A stretch of DNA of 64,000 nt, from sequence record PZ445443.1; one strand, given 5' to 3'. Numbering within the stretch: position 1 is the stretch's first letter; every line of letters begins with the position of its first letter. Under the pieces are notes generated by a model. The model saw nothing but the letters and a program-made list of their open reading frames with translations. It had not been told where the DNA came from and did not search any database. A program made the position numbers and the translations under genes. Shown here one piece after another: positions 56,733 to 64,000 of this stretch. The DNA is from a phage.

Positions 56733-56832
56733 TTTGTCAGTCTATCCTGCCACACAAATAACCTAGTGTCAACACTTGAAATTAACAAAACAGTCAGGTA
56801 TACTACCGTTGAAATTAAAACGGAGGGTCACT

Positions 56833-57243
56833 ATGTCTAAAATGCTATATATCGTGCGTGGTCTACCAGGGTCTGGCAAATCAACACTGGCAAATGCGCT
56901 ATCTTTAGAGGGTCTGTATCCACATTTTGAGAACGACATGTTCTGGTATGACGATGACGGCAATTACAACTGGGATGCAAGTAAAGTAACACTCGCAGCA
57001 AAATGGTGCAAAGATAACGTAGAAGATATGATGCGTATGGGATACGACCGTATCGTGGTAAGTAATACGTTTACAAAAGAAAAACATGTGCAGGAATATG
57101 TTGACATGGCAATCAGTCATGGGTATAGTTATACCGTGATCGTGGTTGAAAACCGCCACGGTAATAAAAGCATTCATGATGTTCCAGACAAGGTTGTGGA
57201 TCGTATGGAACGCCAGCTTAAAAACTGCATTAAACTTAAATGA
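56833..57243 (+). CDS. P-loop polynucleotide 5'-kinase-like protein
   Basis: Track start 56776 trimmed to ATG 56833 with GGAGGG RBS; Walker A GLPGSGKST. Confidence 0.5.
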   Translation: MSKMLYIVRGLPGSGKSTLANALSLEGLYPHFENDMFWYDDDGNYNWDASKVTLAAKWCKDNVEDMMRMGYDRIVVSNTFTKEKHVQEYVDMAISHGYSYTVIVVENRHGNKSIHDVPDKVVDRMERQLKNCIKLK

Positions 57244-57250
57244 GGAATGT

Positions 57251-57805
57251 ATGAAATACTTTGTAACAAGCGACACACACTTTCTCCACCAGCGGGTCAT
57301 GGAGTTTGATTCATGTCAAAAACACAGATCTCAGTATGATCACAATCTTGACAGTATGAATGCGGGAATCATCGCCAAGTGGAACTCTGTTGTGTCACCT
57401 GCAGACACTGTGTTCCACTTGGGAGATATTGCGTGCACCAATGATAAGAATATCAACAACTTACTTCCAGATATTCTAAATATGTTGAACGGACATATTA
57501 TTCTTGTTCGTGGCAACCATGACACAAGGACGACTGTCAGAATTATGAAAGAGTTCGGTCATGAGGTTGTAGATTATTACGAGCTTCGCCACAACAAGAA
57601 TTTGATCTGTATGAGCCATTACCAGTTTGCAAAGTGGAACAGAAAGCCTCACGGATCAGTCCAACTGTTCGGTCATGCTCACGGAACCACACAACAGTTG
57701 TTTGGCAGGCAGCTTGATGTCGGTTGGGATGTGTGGGGGAGACTCTTACCATTAGAAGAGGCATACCGTATTGCAATGAGTTTTGATATTGACAGCAGGG
57801 AGTAA
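57251..57805 (+). CDS. calcineurin-like metallophosphoesterase
   Basis: Track start trimmed to ATG 57251; motifs DTHF, GDIA, GNHD. Confidence 0.65.
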   Translation: MKYFVTSDTHFLHQRVMEFDSCQKHRSQYDHNLDSMNAGIIAKWNSVVSPADTVFHLGDIACTNDKNINNLLPDILNMLNGHIILVRGNHDTRTTVRIMKEFGHEVVDYYELRHNKNLICMSHYQFAKWNRKPHGSVQLFGHAHGTTQQLFGRQLDVGWDVWGRLLPLEEAYRIAMSFDIDSRE

Positions 57806-58278: not shown

Positions 58279-58362
58279 CTGTCCGTGATACGGACACTAC
58301 TGTCCGTCACGCGGACACATCTGCCCGTAATACGGACACTAACTGTCCGTGATACGGACACA
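58279..58362. repeat. array of four tandem palindromic operator-like sites (GTCCGT-N3-ACGGAC) at 21-22 bp spacing
   Basis: Cores at 58281, 58302, 58323 and 58345; copies 1 and 4 perfect, 2 and 3 one mismatch. Confidence 0.6.
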
Positions 58363-58500
58363 TAAAGAATATAACTAAAATAACTAAATAATAAAAAATA
58401 AAAGATCTAGTACTTATGGTACTAAGTACATATACTTAACTTATGTAGAATATACTAGATCCTAAGTACCATGTTTTAAATTTATTACTTACTATGGACA
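58363..58500. promoter_or_regulatory. AT-rich region with nested inverted repeats
   Basis: About 85% AT; inverted repeats AGATCTAGTA/TACTAGATC and ATGGTACT/AGTACCAT. Confidence 0.4.
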
Positions 58501-58790
58501 GTGTCGGCCCTTCATTGGCACTCGCCTACGAGGGGCGAGATGCCGGGCCTCCTTGGTGCACACAATAACAGAAGTGCATACATGCAGGTCTGTTAACATG
58601 TGTGGGAGCGAAGCGATAGCGCAGGCCAAAGGCCGAGCACTGATGTGGACCACCGACGAAAGCTTGCCAGCGCCGTAAGGAGTCGGTTGAGAGTCTCCCG
58701 CGCGAGCTTGGATGAAGTTTATGTGTGGAAACTGACAAGAAGGCCCCTAAATCGCTCCACAGCTATATAAACTATACCAGGTAATGCAAT
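58501..58790. other. GC-rich ORF-free island A (candidate structured RNA or protein-binding region)
   Basis: Locally high GC in an AT-rich genome; hairpins visible; only low-complexity ORF lacking RBS. Confidence 0.35.
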
Positions 58791-59718: not shown

Positions 59719-59961
59719 ATGTTTAAGGTTAAGCTCGTTTTTCGTTCCATGAATGAGGATTATTTAGAAGATGAAGGTGAATTTCGTGCACTGGATGATG
59801 CAATAGATTTTGCCAACGACTTAGCTTGTATGAATACAGGTTATGGGCTATGTTGTTGGGATGGTGGTGTTCAGATCGGTGATAGCAAGATCTTCTACTT
59901 CTACCCTGAGCCTGATAACAAACAAATTAAGTATGTTTTATTTATTTGTGCTTTACAATGA
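59719..59961 (+). CDS. hypothetical protein
   Basis: 80 aa ORF. Confidence 0.5.
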   Translation: MFKVKLVFRSMNEDYLEDEGEFRALDDAIDFANDLACMNTGYGLCCWDGGVQIGDSKIFYFYPEPDNKQIKYVLFICALQ

Positions 59962-60040
59962 GGTTGTTTTCGTGTATCATGATGAATATCCAATTTAAAG
60001 ATGAATTTGATGGCTTTATCTCTGGATGCTTTGAAACAGG

Positions 60041-60250
60041 GTTCGGAGAAGACTGAGTTCCCCTTAGAGGGCTTGATAGTGCACCACACTTAAAATGGTA
60101 GGGGCAGCCAGCACATGACGATGTGACCCCAGCCAACCTGTAACAAGGTCGAGCCGAAGCGCGGGTAATAGGCCTCTGGTAACCCACTTGTTGGGTCTTG
60201 CTGGTCCAGGACGCTGGACAAGTCGCAGGGAACACCACCCTGCGGCGAAC
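60041..60250. other. GC-rich ORF-free island B (candidate structured RNA)
   Basis: High local GC; hairpins CACAT-gacg-ATGTG, GTCCAG-gacg-CTGGAC, GCAGGG-aacaccac-CCCTGC; overlapping minus ORF looks spurious. Confidence 0.35.
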
Positions 60251-60296
60251 TTGACAATCAGTATTTGCTATGATAAAATCCACCTATCACGTGATA
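60251..60296 (+). promoter_or_regulatory. sigma70-like promoter (TTGACA-18-TAAAAT) with perfect palindrome TATCACGTGATA at the start site
   Basis: Palindrome at 60285-60296 lies between -10 element and RBS of CDS 60308. Confidence 0.45.
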
Positions 60297-60307: not shown

Positions 60308-60646
60308 ATGGCGGATACAACTAAAAAGCGTCGCCGTAGAGGCAGACCTCTGAAAGAGGAGTCCAACGCCATTCAGCTAGAGAAGAACATCCTTGATATG
60401 AAGGAATCTTTTATAGCGATGGTTCCAGAAGCTCACAAAGTTTTAAGAGAGCTGATGTTGGACCCGAAAACCAAACAAAATATTCGTCAAAGCATTGCAG
60501 AGTATGTTCTTGATAAGGCAGACCGAATGCAGGAAGAATATGATGAGATGTTTGGTGAAGAGGAAGAGGTGGTAGTGGAAGAGGCTGAAAAACCAGCACC
60601 TTTTATGCCATTTACTACAGAAATACAGCCTGTTAGCAATAGATAA
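60308..60646 (+). CDS. hypothetical protein with basic RRRRGRP N-terminus and acidic C-terminus
   Basis: Track start 60188 trimmed to ATG 60308 with GGAGG RBS. Confidence 0.55.
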   Translation: MADTTKKRRRRGRPLKEESNAIQLEKNILDMKESFIAMVPEAHKVLRELMLDPKTKQNIRQSIAEYVLDKADRMQEEYDEMFGEEEEVVVEEAEKPAPFMPFTTEIQPVSNR

Positions 60647-60742: not shown

Positions 60743-60817
60743 GCCCTGTTAGCTTAGTGGATAAAGCAGCGGCCTTCTAAGCCGTTGACACTGGTTCGAG
60801 TCCAGTACGGGGTGCCA
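60743..60817 (+). tRNA. tRNA-Arg (anticodon TCT), CCA encoded
   Basis: Hand-folded cloverleaf: 7-bp acceptor stem (two G-U), anticodon loop CTTCTAA, T-loop TTCGAGT. Confidence 0.7.
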
Positions 60818-60821
60818 AATT

Positions 60822-60908
60822 GGGGAGTTATCCCGTAGAGGTAGCGGTGTAGACTGTAAATCTATTGTCATTGCGACTCGGGTGGTTCGACTCCACCACT
60901 CCCCACCA
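60822..60908 (+). tRNA. tRNA-Tyr (anticodon GTA), long variable arm, CCA encoded
   Basis: Perfect 7-bp acceptor stem GGGGAGT/ACTCCCC; anticodon loop CTGTAAA; T-loop TTCGACT; 87 nt. Confidence 0.7.
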
Positions 60909-61022
60909 AATTTATATTTTTAGATGCATAAATAATACAGATAATGGCATTGATATTTATCGTCGTTTATACTAGTCACTAACTGCTCGAAAATCAGTGT
61001 CATTATCAGTATAATTTATAAA

Positions 61023-61113
61023 GGAGGGTAGGGAGCAATGGTGCTCAAGCGGTCTTGAAAACCGTCCCGTTGAGGATGACTCGATGATGGTTCGATTCCA
61101 TTACTCTCCGCCA
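61023..61113 (+). tRNA. tRNA-Ser (anticodon TGA), long variable arm, CCA encoded
   Basis: Acceptor GGAGGGT/ACTCTCC; anticodon loop CTTGAAA; T-loop TTCGATT; 91 nt. Confidence 0.65.
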
Positions 61114-61211
61114 CATTGTTGACCTTGTAATTAAGCGAAAGTCGGAAGCAGAACCGGATTATCAAATGTTACAGTCGTCATCGCCGACTAGCAACATGGT
61201 CAACATACTGA

Positions 61212-61308
61212 GCTAGGTAAGCCCTTTGGCAAGGGCGAGGATTTTTAATCCTGAAAATAGACGAGGTAGTCGTTGAATACATAGGTGGTTCGATTCCATC
61301 ACCTAGCA
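61212..61308 (+). tRNA. atypical tRNA-like gene (possible UUU anticodon, oversized variable region, no encoded CCA)
   Basis: Perfect acceptor stem GCTAGGT/ACCTAGC and T-arm GGTGG-TTCGATT-CCATC; anticodon arm non-canonical (AGGA-TTTTTAA-TCCT); 29 nt between anticodon and T stems; 97 nt. Confidence 0.4.
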
Positions 61309-61315
61309 CCTTTTT

Positions 61316-61391
61316 GCTGATGTAGCACAATCGGTAGTGCAATTGATTTGTAATCAATAGGTTGTAGGTTCAAGTCCTGCCATCAGCACCA
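61316..61391 (+). tRNA. tRNA-Thr (anticodon TGT), CCA encoded
   Basis: Perfect acceptor stem GCTGATG/CATCAGC; anticodon stem ATTGA/TCAAT with loop TTTGTAA; T-loop TTCAAGT. Confidence 0.75.
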
Positions 61392-61392
61392 A

Positions 61393-61467
61393 GGCCCTGT
61401 AGCTGGAAGGTTCAAGCAAGCGACTCATAATCGCCAGACGGTGGTTCAATTCCACCCAGGGCCACCA
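61393..61467 (+). tRNA. tRNA-Met or tRNA-Ile2 (anticodon CAT), CCA encoded
   Basis: Perfect acceptor stem GGCCCTG/CAGGGCC; anticodon loop CTCATAA; T-loop TTCAATT. Confidence 0.7.
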
Positions 61468-61478
61468 AATAGTAAATA

Positions 61479-61555
61479 CTCCGCGTAGCTCAGCTTGGTA
61501 GAGCGCCTGATTTGGGATCAGGAGGTCGAGTGTTCGAATCACTCCGTGGAGACCA
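61479..61555 (+). tRNA. tRNA-Pro (anticodon TGG), CCA encoded
   Basis: Acceptor CTCCGCG/CGTGGAG; anticodon stem CCTGA/TCAGG with loop TTTGGGA; T-loop TTCGAAT. Confidence 0.7.
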
Positions 61556-62659: not shown

Positions 62660-63087
62660 TGTCTAAGATTTACGGACCGTGTTCTGAAAAGCAGAAGATG
62701 ATCCTAGAAAACGATGCAGATATTTTGGTAATCGGCGGTGCCGCAGGGTCTGGCAAGTCGTTCCTCTTGCAATTGATGCCACTTAAAATTATTGATGACC
62801 CCCACAGCTCTGTGGTTATGTTCCGAAGAACAACCCCACAGTTGGAAGGTGAGGGTGGATTATGGCCTAAAGCAGTAGCTATTTATAGTGATCTGCCTGA
62901 AAACATTAAGCCAAAGTTTAGAGAGAAGGATCATAAGTTCATTTTTCCACGGTTTGATCCGAACACTGGCAAGTGGGATAGAAGCAAAAAGGGAGCTGTT
63001 GTAAAATACTGCCACATGGAGTATGTACAAGATAAGCTTAACCATCAGGGGCTTGAGTACACCATGGTTTGCTTCGATGAGGGTTAA
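62659..63087 (+). CDS. terminase large subunit, N-terminal ATPase segment (interrupted after Walker B)
   Basis: Walker A VIGGAAGSGKS preceded by QK-ILE-DA; ends at Walker B-like MVCFDEG followed by stop. Confidence 0.5.
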   Translation: MSKIYGPCSEKQKMILENDADILVIGGAAGSGKSFLLQLMPLKIIDDPHSSVVMFRRTTPQLEGEGGLWPKAVAIYSDLPENIKPKFREKDHKFIFPRFDPNTGKWDRSKKGAVVKYCHMEYVQDKLNHQGLEYTMVCFDEG

Positions 63088-64000
63088 TTTGTAGCTCTCG
63101 TAAAACCTCCCTAATTGCGGGGAAATCTTTATTATTGACACCACCAACCTGTCATGGTAACATGACAGAGGCTTCGAAGAGAGATCGAAGGTATGGTAAC
63201 AGTGTGTTAATTTAGATAATCCGCAGCGAAGCATCCGAGAGGATGAACGTTCAACGACTAGTCGAAAGACGTAGAATCAAGCGATTCGAAACGGGAGGGT
63301 GAATGTGTAATACTAAAAAATGTATGGATTGCCAAAGAGTTCTACCTATTGATGATTTCTTTTTATCATCTAAGAGCAAGGATGGATACTCAGGTACATG
63401 CAAGGAATGCTATATGTACTACAGGAAGGGTGGATCTCGTAAAAACAAAAATATGGTTAAGAGAGATGATGCAGCATTGTTTATTCAAGACTTGCTGAAG
63501 AAAGGTGAACTTTTTGAATGCAAATCTTGTCATGAAAGTATGCTCGCTGATAGTTTTTACACAAAACGTGACTATGGTAAAGTATATCTGGTTACGAACA
63601 GGTGTAAGATGTGTGAAAAGTTTTATCAGATTGAGAAGAAATTTCACATAACAAAAGATGAATACTATCGTCTACTCTCAGATCAAGATCATAAGTGTGC
63701 CATTTGTAGAATATCCCTTGATGAGTATAGGACGCAAGGGTATAGAGATTTCTTTTGTGTTGATCATGACCATAAAACTGGTGCTGTAAGAGGGTTGCTT
63801 TGTGATAAATGCAACAGAGCTTTAGGTTTCTTCCAAGAGGATGAGGAAACTATTCTTAGAGCGGCAGAGTATTTACACATTCATAAGATATAGTCTGGTC
63901 TGCATGGAGACATGCAGCTGCCTGAAAATGGCGGGGCAAGACTAGCGACCTTGCCCGAACATAAACGACACAATTCGAATGGGAGCAGATAGACTATCTG
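63088..64000 (+). mobile_element. intron-like insertion (probable group I intron with homing endonuclease ORF), 3' end beyond window
   Basis: Interrupts terminase ORF at a conserved site; structured flanks (TAGTCT...AGACTA, GGGCAAG...CTTGCCC pairings); free-standing nuclease ORF with own RBS. Confidence 0.4.
63303..63893 (+). CDS. endonuclease VII-family homing endonuclease
   Basis: ATG with GGGAGGGTG RBS; motif CVDHDHKTGAVRGLLCDKCN; N-terminal Cys clusters. Confidence 0.6.
   Translation: MCNTKKCMDCQRVLPIDDFFLSSKSKDGYSGTCKECYMYYRKGGSRKNKNMVKRDDAALFIQDLLKKGELFECKSCHESMLADSFYTKRDYGKVYLVTNRCKMCEKFYQIEKKFHITKDEYYRLLSDQDHKCAICRISLDEYRTQGYRDFFCVDHDHKTGAVRGLLCDKCNRALGFFQEDEETILRAAEYLHIHKI

Follow-up and report, generated by a model that had tools for sequence, protein, structure and literature searches.

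A pseudoknotted RNA family of bacteriophages, defined by sequence comparison and often encoded near tRNA genes

Island B of an rV5-like phage

The DNA analyzed here (PZ445443.1, 64,000 nucleotides; hereafter the window) originates from an rV5-like phage (Vequintavirus). In it, a small ORF (59719-59961) is separated from the promoter of the gene at 60309-60646 by a GC-rich gap, designated island B, which raises the question of whether the hairpins seen in this gap belong to a functional RNA and, if so, of what kind. Over this region, Escherichia phages inoa and WalterGehring are 100% identical to the window, and phage rV5 is 96% identical. The first-pass annotation had described island B as a GC-rich, ORF-free block with three hairpins, two of them sharing a GACG loop, that ends at a TTGACA promoter. 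This description was borne out: the GC content of the island is 0.54-0.61 against 0.33-0.45 on either side (150-nt windows over 60050-60249), the three hairpins (h, 2 and 3 in Table 1) are present, with the GACG loop in the first two, and the promoter, annotated in rV5 as P74, forms the 3' limit of the RNA unit, being itself outside the RNA. On the + strand, the island contains only ORFs of 30-36 aa at its 5' edge, in a frame that meets a stop after six codons in a sister lineage (see below); a 113-aa ORF on the minus strand (59942-60283) is frameshifted by 1-nt indels in the related loci L021 and L057. In the reference annotation of rV5, the gap is empty.

A promoter-like site upstream of the island (59952-59980) is conserved in L021 and has TATTAT as its -10 box in L057. 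A terminator scan of the + strand between 58200 and 61000 found no intrinsic terminator, i.e., a GC-rich hairpin with a U-run. Since the folding energy of island B does not exceed the chance level (MFE z = -0.90 on the + strand and -0.58 on the - strand), its hairpins alone are no proof of function, and they gain significance only via conservation and covariation, as judged from sequence comparison. ARAGORN predicted seven tRNAs in the window and none in island B, and blastn with 11-nt words found no host homologue in E. coli genomes. The search against Rfam, proposed as a check in the first-pass annotation, gave no match on island B: the Rfam 15 matches in the window are to tRNAs and a group I intron, all outside the island. 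The intron match (63075-63917, + strand) scores 48.5 bits against a gathering score of 50 (E = 3e-10). At 61212-61310, ARAGORN predicts a 99-nt "tRNA-???" with a four-base anticodon, whose homologue in phage Gotham is annotated as tRNA-Lys-TTT; this tRNA may carry an intron or be atypical in some other way.

Architecture of the RNA family and its support

The architecture of the family was derived from 63 distinct instances read side by side and then from a curated parse, which replaced the automatic longest-stem choice of helix A, as the latter took wrong distal stems. In the 5'-to-3' direction the order is as follows: helix A, the 5' strand of the pseudoknot K within the first 1-5 nt of the A loop, an optional hairpin h, the 3' strand of A, the 5' strand of helix B, hairpin P2, C-R-(A), P3 of 2-3 bp, GGUAA, the 3' strand of B, a linker of 0-9 nt, and the 3' strand of K. 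There is no spacer between A and B or between B and P2. Helix A has 4-7 bp; helix B has 4-5 bp and in most cases one bulged nucleotide in its 3' strand. P2 is a nearly invariant hairpin, A-CCU-GUAAYA-AGG-U, which together with P3 and the invariant GGUAA closes a three-way junction. The columns of P2 and GGUAA are invariant in 46/46 seed sequences, A, K, B, and P3 vary freely in sequence with pairing kept, and invariance is concentrated in P2, its loop, and the junction. Hairpin h spans 0-38 nt, being absent in the L007, L011, and L035 groups, where 7-12 nt of the loop remain.

Exactly one copy of this motif was found in the window by the covariance model (Table 1). Its stretch from P2 to the junction (60136-60168) departs from the family consensus only by an extra G (CGGGUAA). 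Hairpin 1 of the first-pass annotation is the variable insert h of this larger pseudoknotted motif, and hairpins 2 and 3 are lineage-specific additions on its 3' side. In the L065 (sister) lineage, hairpin h reads CUACG-GACG-CGUAG, i.e., the GACG loop is kept and the stem is changed.

Table 1. Features of island B and its immediate surroundings (all on the + strand; positions are those of the window).
Feature	Position	Sequence or comment	Basis
Promoter-like site, putative start of an island B transcript	59952-59980	TTTACA-17-TATCAT	Consensus scan, 10/12
5' module	60057-60100	GUUCCCCUUAGAGGGCUUGAUAGUGCACCACACUUAAAAUGGUA	Small hairpins at 60061-60071 and 60078-60090
Core motif, member of the phage RNA family	60101-60180		Model R1, cmsearch 62.8 bits
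Helix A	60101-60104 with 60127-60130	GGGG/CCCC	Model R1
Pseudoknot K	60107-60111 with 60176-60180	GCCAG/CUGGU	Permutation test and T4-like alignment
Variable hairpin h (hairpin 1 of the first-pass annotation)	60112-60125	CACAU-GACG-AUGUG	Model R1
Helix B	60132-60135 with 60169, 60171-60173	GCCA with U + GGC, A60170 bulged	Model R1
P2	60136-60139 with 60146-60149	Loop GUAACA	Model R1
P3	60153-60154 with 60161-60162		Model R1
Junction	60163-60168	GG(G)UAA	Model R1
Small hairpin, lineage-specific	60182-60196	ACCCA-CUUGU-UGGGU	UCCCA/UGGGA compensatory change in L057
Hairpin 2, lineage-specific 3' module	60204-60219	GUCCAG-GACG-CUGGAC	Compensatory changes
Hairpin 3	60224-60244	CGCAGGG-AACACCA-CCCUGCG	Substitutions among relatives in the loop only
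Promoter of the next gene (60309-60646)	60251-60279	TTGACA-17-TAAAAT	11/12 consensus positions

A MAFFT alignment of 46 natural sequences served as the seed from which covariance model R1 was built. In the seed, the four nested helices are 95.3% paired, compared to 71.8% in column shuffles and 25-44% in slid controls, and 151 double-sided changes are observed. In the IMG/VR and metagenome sets recovered with R1 pairing is again 96%, a value flattered by the fitting of these alignments to R1, whereas the seed alignment was not fitted. Over all three sets, the share of paired cells is 95-96%, shuffles reaching 71-72% and slid controls 25-48%, and each set shows 151-243 double-sided changes; the covariation check suggested by the first-pass annotation has revealed a conserved secondary structure. 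Helices A and B retain 91-96% pairing across the family, with multiple pair types.

As Infernal cannot model the pseudoknot, it was tested by two other routes. First, the best duplex between the first 10 nt of the loop and the 15 nt following the 3' strand of B was computed for 17 mutually unrelated representatives and compared with 20,000 permutations of the partners. The observed value was 95.5, compared to 75.9 ± 4.0 (z = 4.9), and 0/20,000 permutations reached it. Second, in the natural alignment of 26 T4-like members, the three central pairs of K are paired in 26/26, one of them occurring as CG, AU, GC, or UA and another as GC or CG. A generic pseudoknot test, RNAduplex between large flanks, was uninformative, giving -11.4 kcal/mol on the diagonal and -10.7 kcal/mol off the diagonal.

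In the helices of the family, 44 G-U pairs are found versus 14 A-C pairs, and the RNA is therefore read from the + strand, the same as that of the genes and tRNAs. By sequence comparison the core is thus shown to be an RNA family with a fixed architecture and with compensatory changes in four helices and the pseudoknot. The earlier suggestion of a small RNA of its own, or else a structured 3' UTR, was on target: the island is a conserved structured RNA on the + strand, which in a sister lineage is directly preceded by a strong promoter. Hairpin 1, however, is only its variable insert.

Accessory modules, distribution and genomic context

The sister lineage (L062, L065, L066, L149, L152, L162, and L186) comes only from metagenomes and carries the same RNA, followed by a gene whose protein is 68% identical to that of the window. 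In this lineage, a near-consensus sigma-70 promoter, TTGACA-17-TATACT (11/12), which is much stronger than the site at 59952-59980 of the window and closer to the RNA, ends ~50 nt upstream of helix A, and the next promoter starts 35 nt past the end of the model; the RNA unit can therefore be at most ~170 nt long. The 44 nt between the start site and helix A in the sister lineage are almost identical to positions 60057-60100 of the window, while the flanks diverge. Since this near-identity is seen in both Vequintavirinae-like lineages, the 5' module belongs to the RNA. Its structure is deduced from complementarity, as there is no variation in it; in addition to the small hairpins listed in Table 1, the loop ACCA (60083-60086) could pair with UGGU (60096-60099). 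A block CCCNUAGAGGGCUUGAWAGUGC was also noticed both 5' and 3' of the core in the sister lineage (L065 8464-8632; L062, L066, L152, L162, L186, and L149), its 5' copy being nearly identical to positions 60060-60082 of the window.

The 3' hairpins are real, lineage-specific accessories, as far as can be judged from sequence comparison. The small hairpin at 60182-60196 is dispensable, since it is deleted in L180. Hairpin 2 shows a double compensatory change, GCUCAG/CUGAGC, in L057, where the GACG loop is kept, and a U-G wobble in L021; its site in the sister lineage is occupied by GCUGG-AGACGGA-CCAGC. Hairpin 3 is missing from the sister lineage and, as it lacks a U-tract, is not an intrinsic terminator; the other two 3' hairpins have no U-tract either.

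A sensitive BLAST search with the island retrieved 118 rV5-like and ~460 T4-like genomes, the T4-like matches covering only positions 60125-60172 of the window. In T4, the match falls into the unannotated 145-nt gap between denV and the regB promoter. Exact-pattern scans yielded 64 loci in IMG/VR, 53 in metagenomes, and 69 in GTDB, and cmsearch with R1 gave 69 IMG/VR and 52 metagenome matches with scores of 43-83 bits. The cultured phages Pylas, Phapecoctavirus DE16, and rV5 score 67-75 bits, rV5 reaching 74.7 bits although it was outside the seed. The family also occurs in many uncultured phages, as well as in phAPEC8-like and N4-like (Pylas) groups. In bacterial genomes, the 69 pattern matches are close to the chance expectation, with one convincing case: a copy in a 949-kb record labeled as a megaplasmid, pPLMAXa of Pseudomonas sp. 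PLMAX (L108, 4497-4585), the only convincing non-phage copy, scores 52.5 bits and has all helices and the pseudoknot (CCGAA/UUCGG) intact. Some T4-like contigs contain tandem, diverged copies ~20 nt apart (L016 5079-5303, L050 8968-9193, and L184 310-535). Nearly everywhere the motif is unannotated or overlaid by spurious small ORFs. Among the database records inspected, 18 GenBank entries MG0656xx ("Campylobacter phage" C2, D1, and others) are more than 99% identical to E. coli rV5-like phages in this region and are probably mislabeled or contaminants.

The motif tends to occur near tRNA genes. In 14 of the 30 sequence clusters a tRNA is encoded on the same strand within 1 kb, and in 0/30 on the opposite strand, the background being 15% of locus bases. 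Between motif and tRNA there are 4 to 600 nt. In the window, the motif lies ~560 nt upstream of tRNA-Arg (60743), the first of a seven-tRNA array (60743-61555), with another gene (60309-60646) and its promoter in between. Closer arrangements are found elsewhere: in L156 the motif begins 3-4 nt past the CCA of tRNA-Met; in L059 it begins 5-6 nt past tRNA-Ser, with a canonical intrinsic terminator ~12 nt after the 3' strand of K; in L189 it is flanked by a tRNA and a tRNA-like sequence, at spacings of 17 and 12 nt; in Phapecoctavirus DE16 it is located mid-way in a 10-tRNA array; and in Klebsiella phage Pylas (Schitoviridae) it resides in an ORF-free kilobase following a tRNA array. T4-like phages are the exception: 5-8 kb separate their motif from the tRNA array, and it follows denV or one of various internal-protein genes. 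In most of them it lies 15-130 nt upstream of the P-loop gene phrog_1488, whichever gene precedes. Beyond the T4-likes, no protein family was found as a common neighbor across lineages, and phrog and Pfam searches of flanking proteins produced matches of unknown function only. Genes similar to those for RNA repair, namely a 3'-phosphatase/5'-polynucleotide kinase (as annotated in phage Gotham) and a metallophosphoesterase-like ORF, are present at 56776-57805, just upstream of the region with the small RNA and the tRNA array.

Possible functions and relation to known RNAs

With moderate confidence, and from sequence evidence, we interpret the motif as a self-contained, stable small RNA that would be matured together with tRNAs and would act via its junction on some conserved factor of host or phage. 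This reading is based on the helices that covary freely around an invariant junction, the location in tRNA arrays with tRNA-like spacing, the cases with a dedicated promoter or terminator, the tandem copies, and the changing protein neighbors. In the window, transcription would begin at the weak promoter 59952 or result from read-through from promoter 59639, and the transcript would be trimmed by host tRNA-maturing enzymes (RNase P, RNase E, and exonucleases) to a discrete, stable species. The A/K pseudoknot and a continuous A-B-P2 stack would hold the RNA rigid, as a scaffold presenting the invariant junction and loop, through which the RNA would work; the hypothetical partner could be a small ligand or a conserved protein of host or phage. 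Neither antisense pairing nor coding would be involved, and an accessory role would fall to the 5' and 3' modules specific to Vequintavirinae. Three facts speak against a stable RNA in the window, the weakness of the nearest upstream promoter-like site, the absence of a terminator, and the ~560 nt, with another gene and promoter, that separate the motif from the first tRNA. Across lineages, the lack of a conserved neighboring protein and, in T4-likes, the 5-8 kb to the tRNA array also speak against this reading, and the T4-like position just upstream of phrog_1488 would also suit a cis-acting leader.

Such a cis-acting mRNA element is possible, but on the whole unlikely. As a mechanically stable double pseudoknot, the motif would then belong either to the 3' UTR of the operon before it or to the 5' UTR of the gene after it, and would serve to stop exonucleases or scanning by RNase E, to punctuate processing, or to control the next gene as a riboswitch-like leader. 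Besides the phrog_1488 arrangement, this is suggested by the loci of the window, T4, and L064 type, where the motif ends the upstream transcription unit just before the next promoter, and by the 10 nt preceding helix A, which are 69% A/U, as at RNase E sites. However, a promoter within 60 nt downstream of the motif was found in only 3/30 cluster representatives, and the rule that the motif always precedes a promoter was rejected on the same count. Moreover, tRNA arrays offer no mRNA that could be regulated or protected; a terminator follows the motif in L059; in the sister lineage, the motif has a dedicated promoter and the next gene another; no alternative terminator or platform sequestering the Shine-Dalgarno sequence was seen; and no Rfam riboswitch model matches.

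More doubtful is the possibility that the family constitutes a new functional RNA class with the invariant three-way junction as its active or binding site, being either an aptamer or decoy, or a new ribozyme. Covarying helices around an invariant junction are the conservation pattern of an aptamer or an active site. In the first case, an aptamer or decoy expressed from tRNA arrays may sequester a host factor acting on tRNAs or defense signals; in the second case, a self-cleaving or processing ribozyme may reuse the HDV-like topology with a different catalytic core. The invariant CUGUAA(N) (60138-60144) coincides with the anticodon loop of tRNA-Tyr(GUA), tRNA-Tyr of the window (60822-60908) reading gaCUGUAAAtc, and GUAA recurs in the invariant GGUAA (60164-60168). 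A mimic for an enzyme or nuclease recognizing the anticodon loop is therefore conceivable, but the match is a lead only, since the chance of matching some tRNA loop is estimated at roughly 10%.

The motif may likewise represent an aptamer class of its own. As in the present family, pairing of a hairpin loop with a segment farther 3' clamps a conserved junction in the ZTP riboswitch and in tRNA-like structures of plant viruses. The family also resembles aptamers in its invariant junction and freely covarying helices; it shares no sequence or Rfam model similarity with riboswitches or tRNAs, and has neither an expression platform nor a 3' CCA. Two identities were tried and rejected. A tRNA is excluded, as ARAGORN predicts none in the island and the Rfam tRNA model does not match the motif at any locus. 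A known riboswitch class is excluded by the lack of Rfam matches and by what follows the motif, namely a promoter in the window, and tRNAs or a terminator in other phages.

Still less probable, by analogy, is a self-cleaving ribozyme of the HDV-like nested double-pseudoknot type, cutting at the 5' end of helix A and thereby releasing upstream tRNAs or mRNAs, as theta ribozymes do. The order of strands is indeed that of HDV-like and theta ribozymes, with A corresponding to P1, K to P2, h to P3, and the B domain to P4. Theta ribozymes, which are HDV-like, tRNA-associated, and found in gut phages (PMC10879173), provide a phage precedent. Like them, the family is phage-encoded, and in some lineages it is located a few nucleotides after a tRNA gene, two of these (L156 and L059) starting 3-6 nt past the tRNA 3' end. 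On the other hand, the catalytic C at the first J4/2 position, which defines the HDV-like family and whose change to U inactivates the ribozyme (PMC10879173), has no counterpart: among 43 cluster representatives the first nucleotide after the 3' strand of B is U in 21, A in 13, G in 9, and never C. The P3/L3/P1.1 core is also missing. Hairpin h is absent in the L007, L011, and L035 groups and has 14-38 nt elsewhere; the region analogous to P3/L3, absent in the L007 and L035 groups, spans 7-40 nt in the others; and there is no analogue of the P1.1 pairing between L3 and J1/4, as no spacer separates A and B. Moreover, conservation in the family is concentrated in the analogue of P4, which is dispensable in HDV-like ribozymes, the linker varies between 0 and 9 nt, the distance to the tRNA is far from constant, and no Rfam ribozyme model scores on the motif.

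Finally, that nothing here functions as RNA, the hairpins being due to chance, the region a small protein gene, or the signal a DNA-level operator, homing, or recombination site, is most improbable: the insignificant folding energy of the island, the small ORFs touching it that are annotated in some GenBank records, and the invariance of the P2 region already at the DNA level would agree with it, but it is contradicted by the compensatory changes in four helices and the pseudoknot across unrelated phage families, by the strand asymmetry of G-U over A-C pairs, and by the lack of conservation of the island ORFs among relatives.

Among known phage RNAs, the stable small RNA favored above may be compared to RNAC and RNAD of T4, which are likewise non-coding, lie on the same strand as the phage tRNA genes, and are presumably matured by the tRNA-processing machinery. 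The family shares with them the strand of the tRNA genes and a position in or beside tRNA arrays. However, RNAC and RNAD are situated in the tRNA cluster, while the T4 locus of the family is the denV-regB gap, and the family, unlike RNAC and RNAD, is spread over several phage families. Identity with these RNAs was rejected, since the published RNAC probe does not contain the motif and R1 finds no second copy in those T4-like loci that include the tRNA arrays. T4 itself is one of the most thoroughly studied phages. According to a 2010 review of T4, no riboswitch or trans-acting small RNA had been functionally characterized in this phage, and its two known small RNAs had no known role (PMC3014915).

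The family is absent from Rfam 15, none of whose models matches the motif at E ≤ 1 in the window and six diverse loci or at E ≤ 5 in two T4-like loci, and a full-text literature search with the core sequence string and for a denV/regB non-coding RNA returned nothing relevant. We rate it as a new RNA family of a generally known kind, the small RNAs that phages encode together with tRNA genes. No counterpart has been described for its fold and consensus, and the motif could be among the 10,006 candidate viral structured RNAs catalogued in PMC10690425. As the invariant junction resembles an aptamer or a catalytic core and the motif travels with tRNA genes, the family is a concrete and tractable candidate for phage RNA biology, in particular for tRNA processing, host takeover, and anti-defense; R1 is a model ready for genome annotation.

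The first-pass annotation had also proposed that island B and a second GC-rich block, island A, flank a mobile or co-regulated cassette. This idea was not upheld: the two islands have no sequence similarity, the model matches only once in the window, island A occurs in Vequintavirus alone, and the core of island B is present in many phages lacking both island A and the cassette. Island A was for the same reasons, i.e., the lack of sequence similarity and of an R1 match, rejected as a second copy or partner. Taken by itself, island A (58490-58770) is ORF-poor, has a GC content of 0.55-0.58 and a significantly low MFE (z = -3.0), does not match Rfam, and was found in 118 records, all of Vequintavirus. 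Upstream of it, four imperfect palindromes TGTCCGT-N3-ACGGACA, ~21 nt apart (58280-58360), are followed by an AT-rich segment (58363-58480, GC content 0.23); judging from its sequence, the palindrome array looks like iterons or operators and is possibly an origin or a regulatory region.
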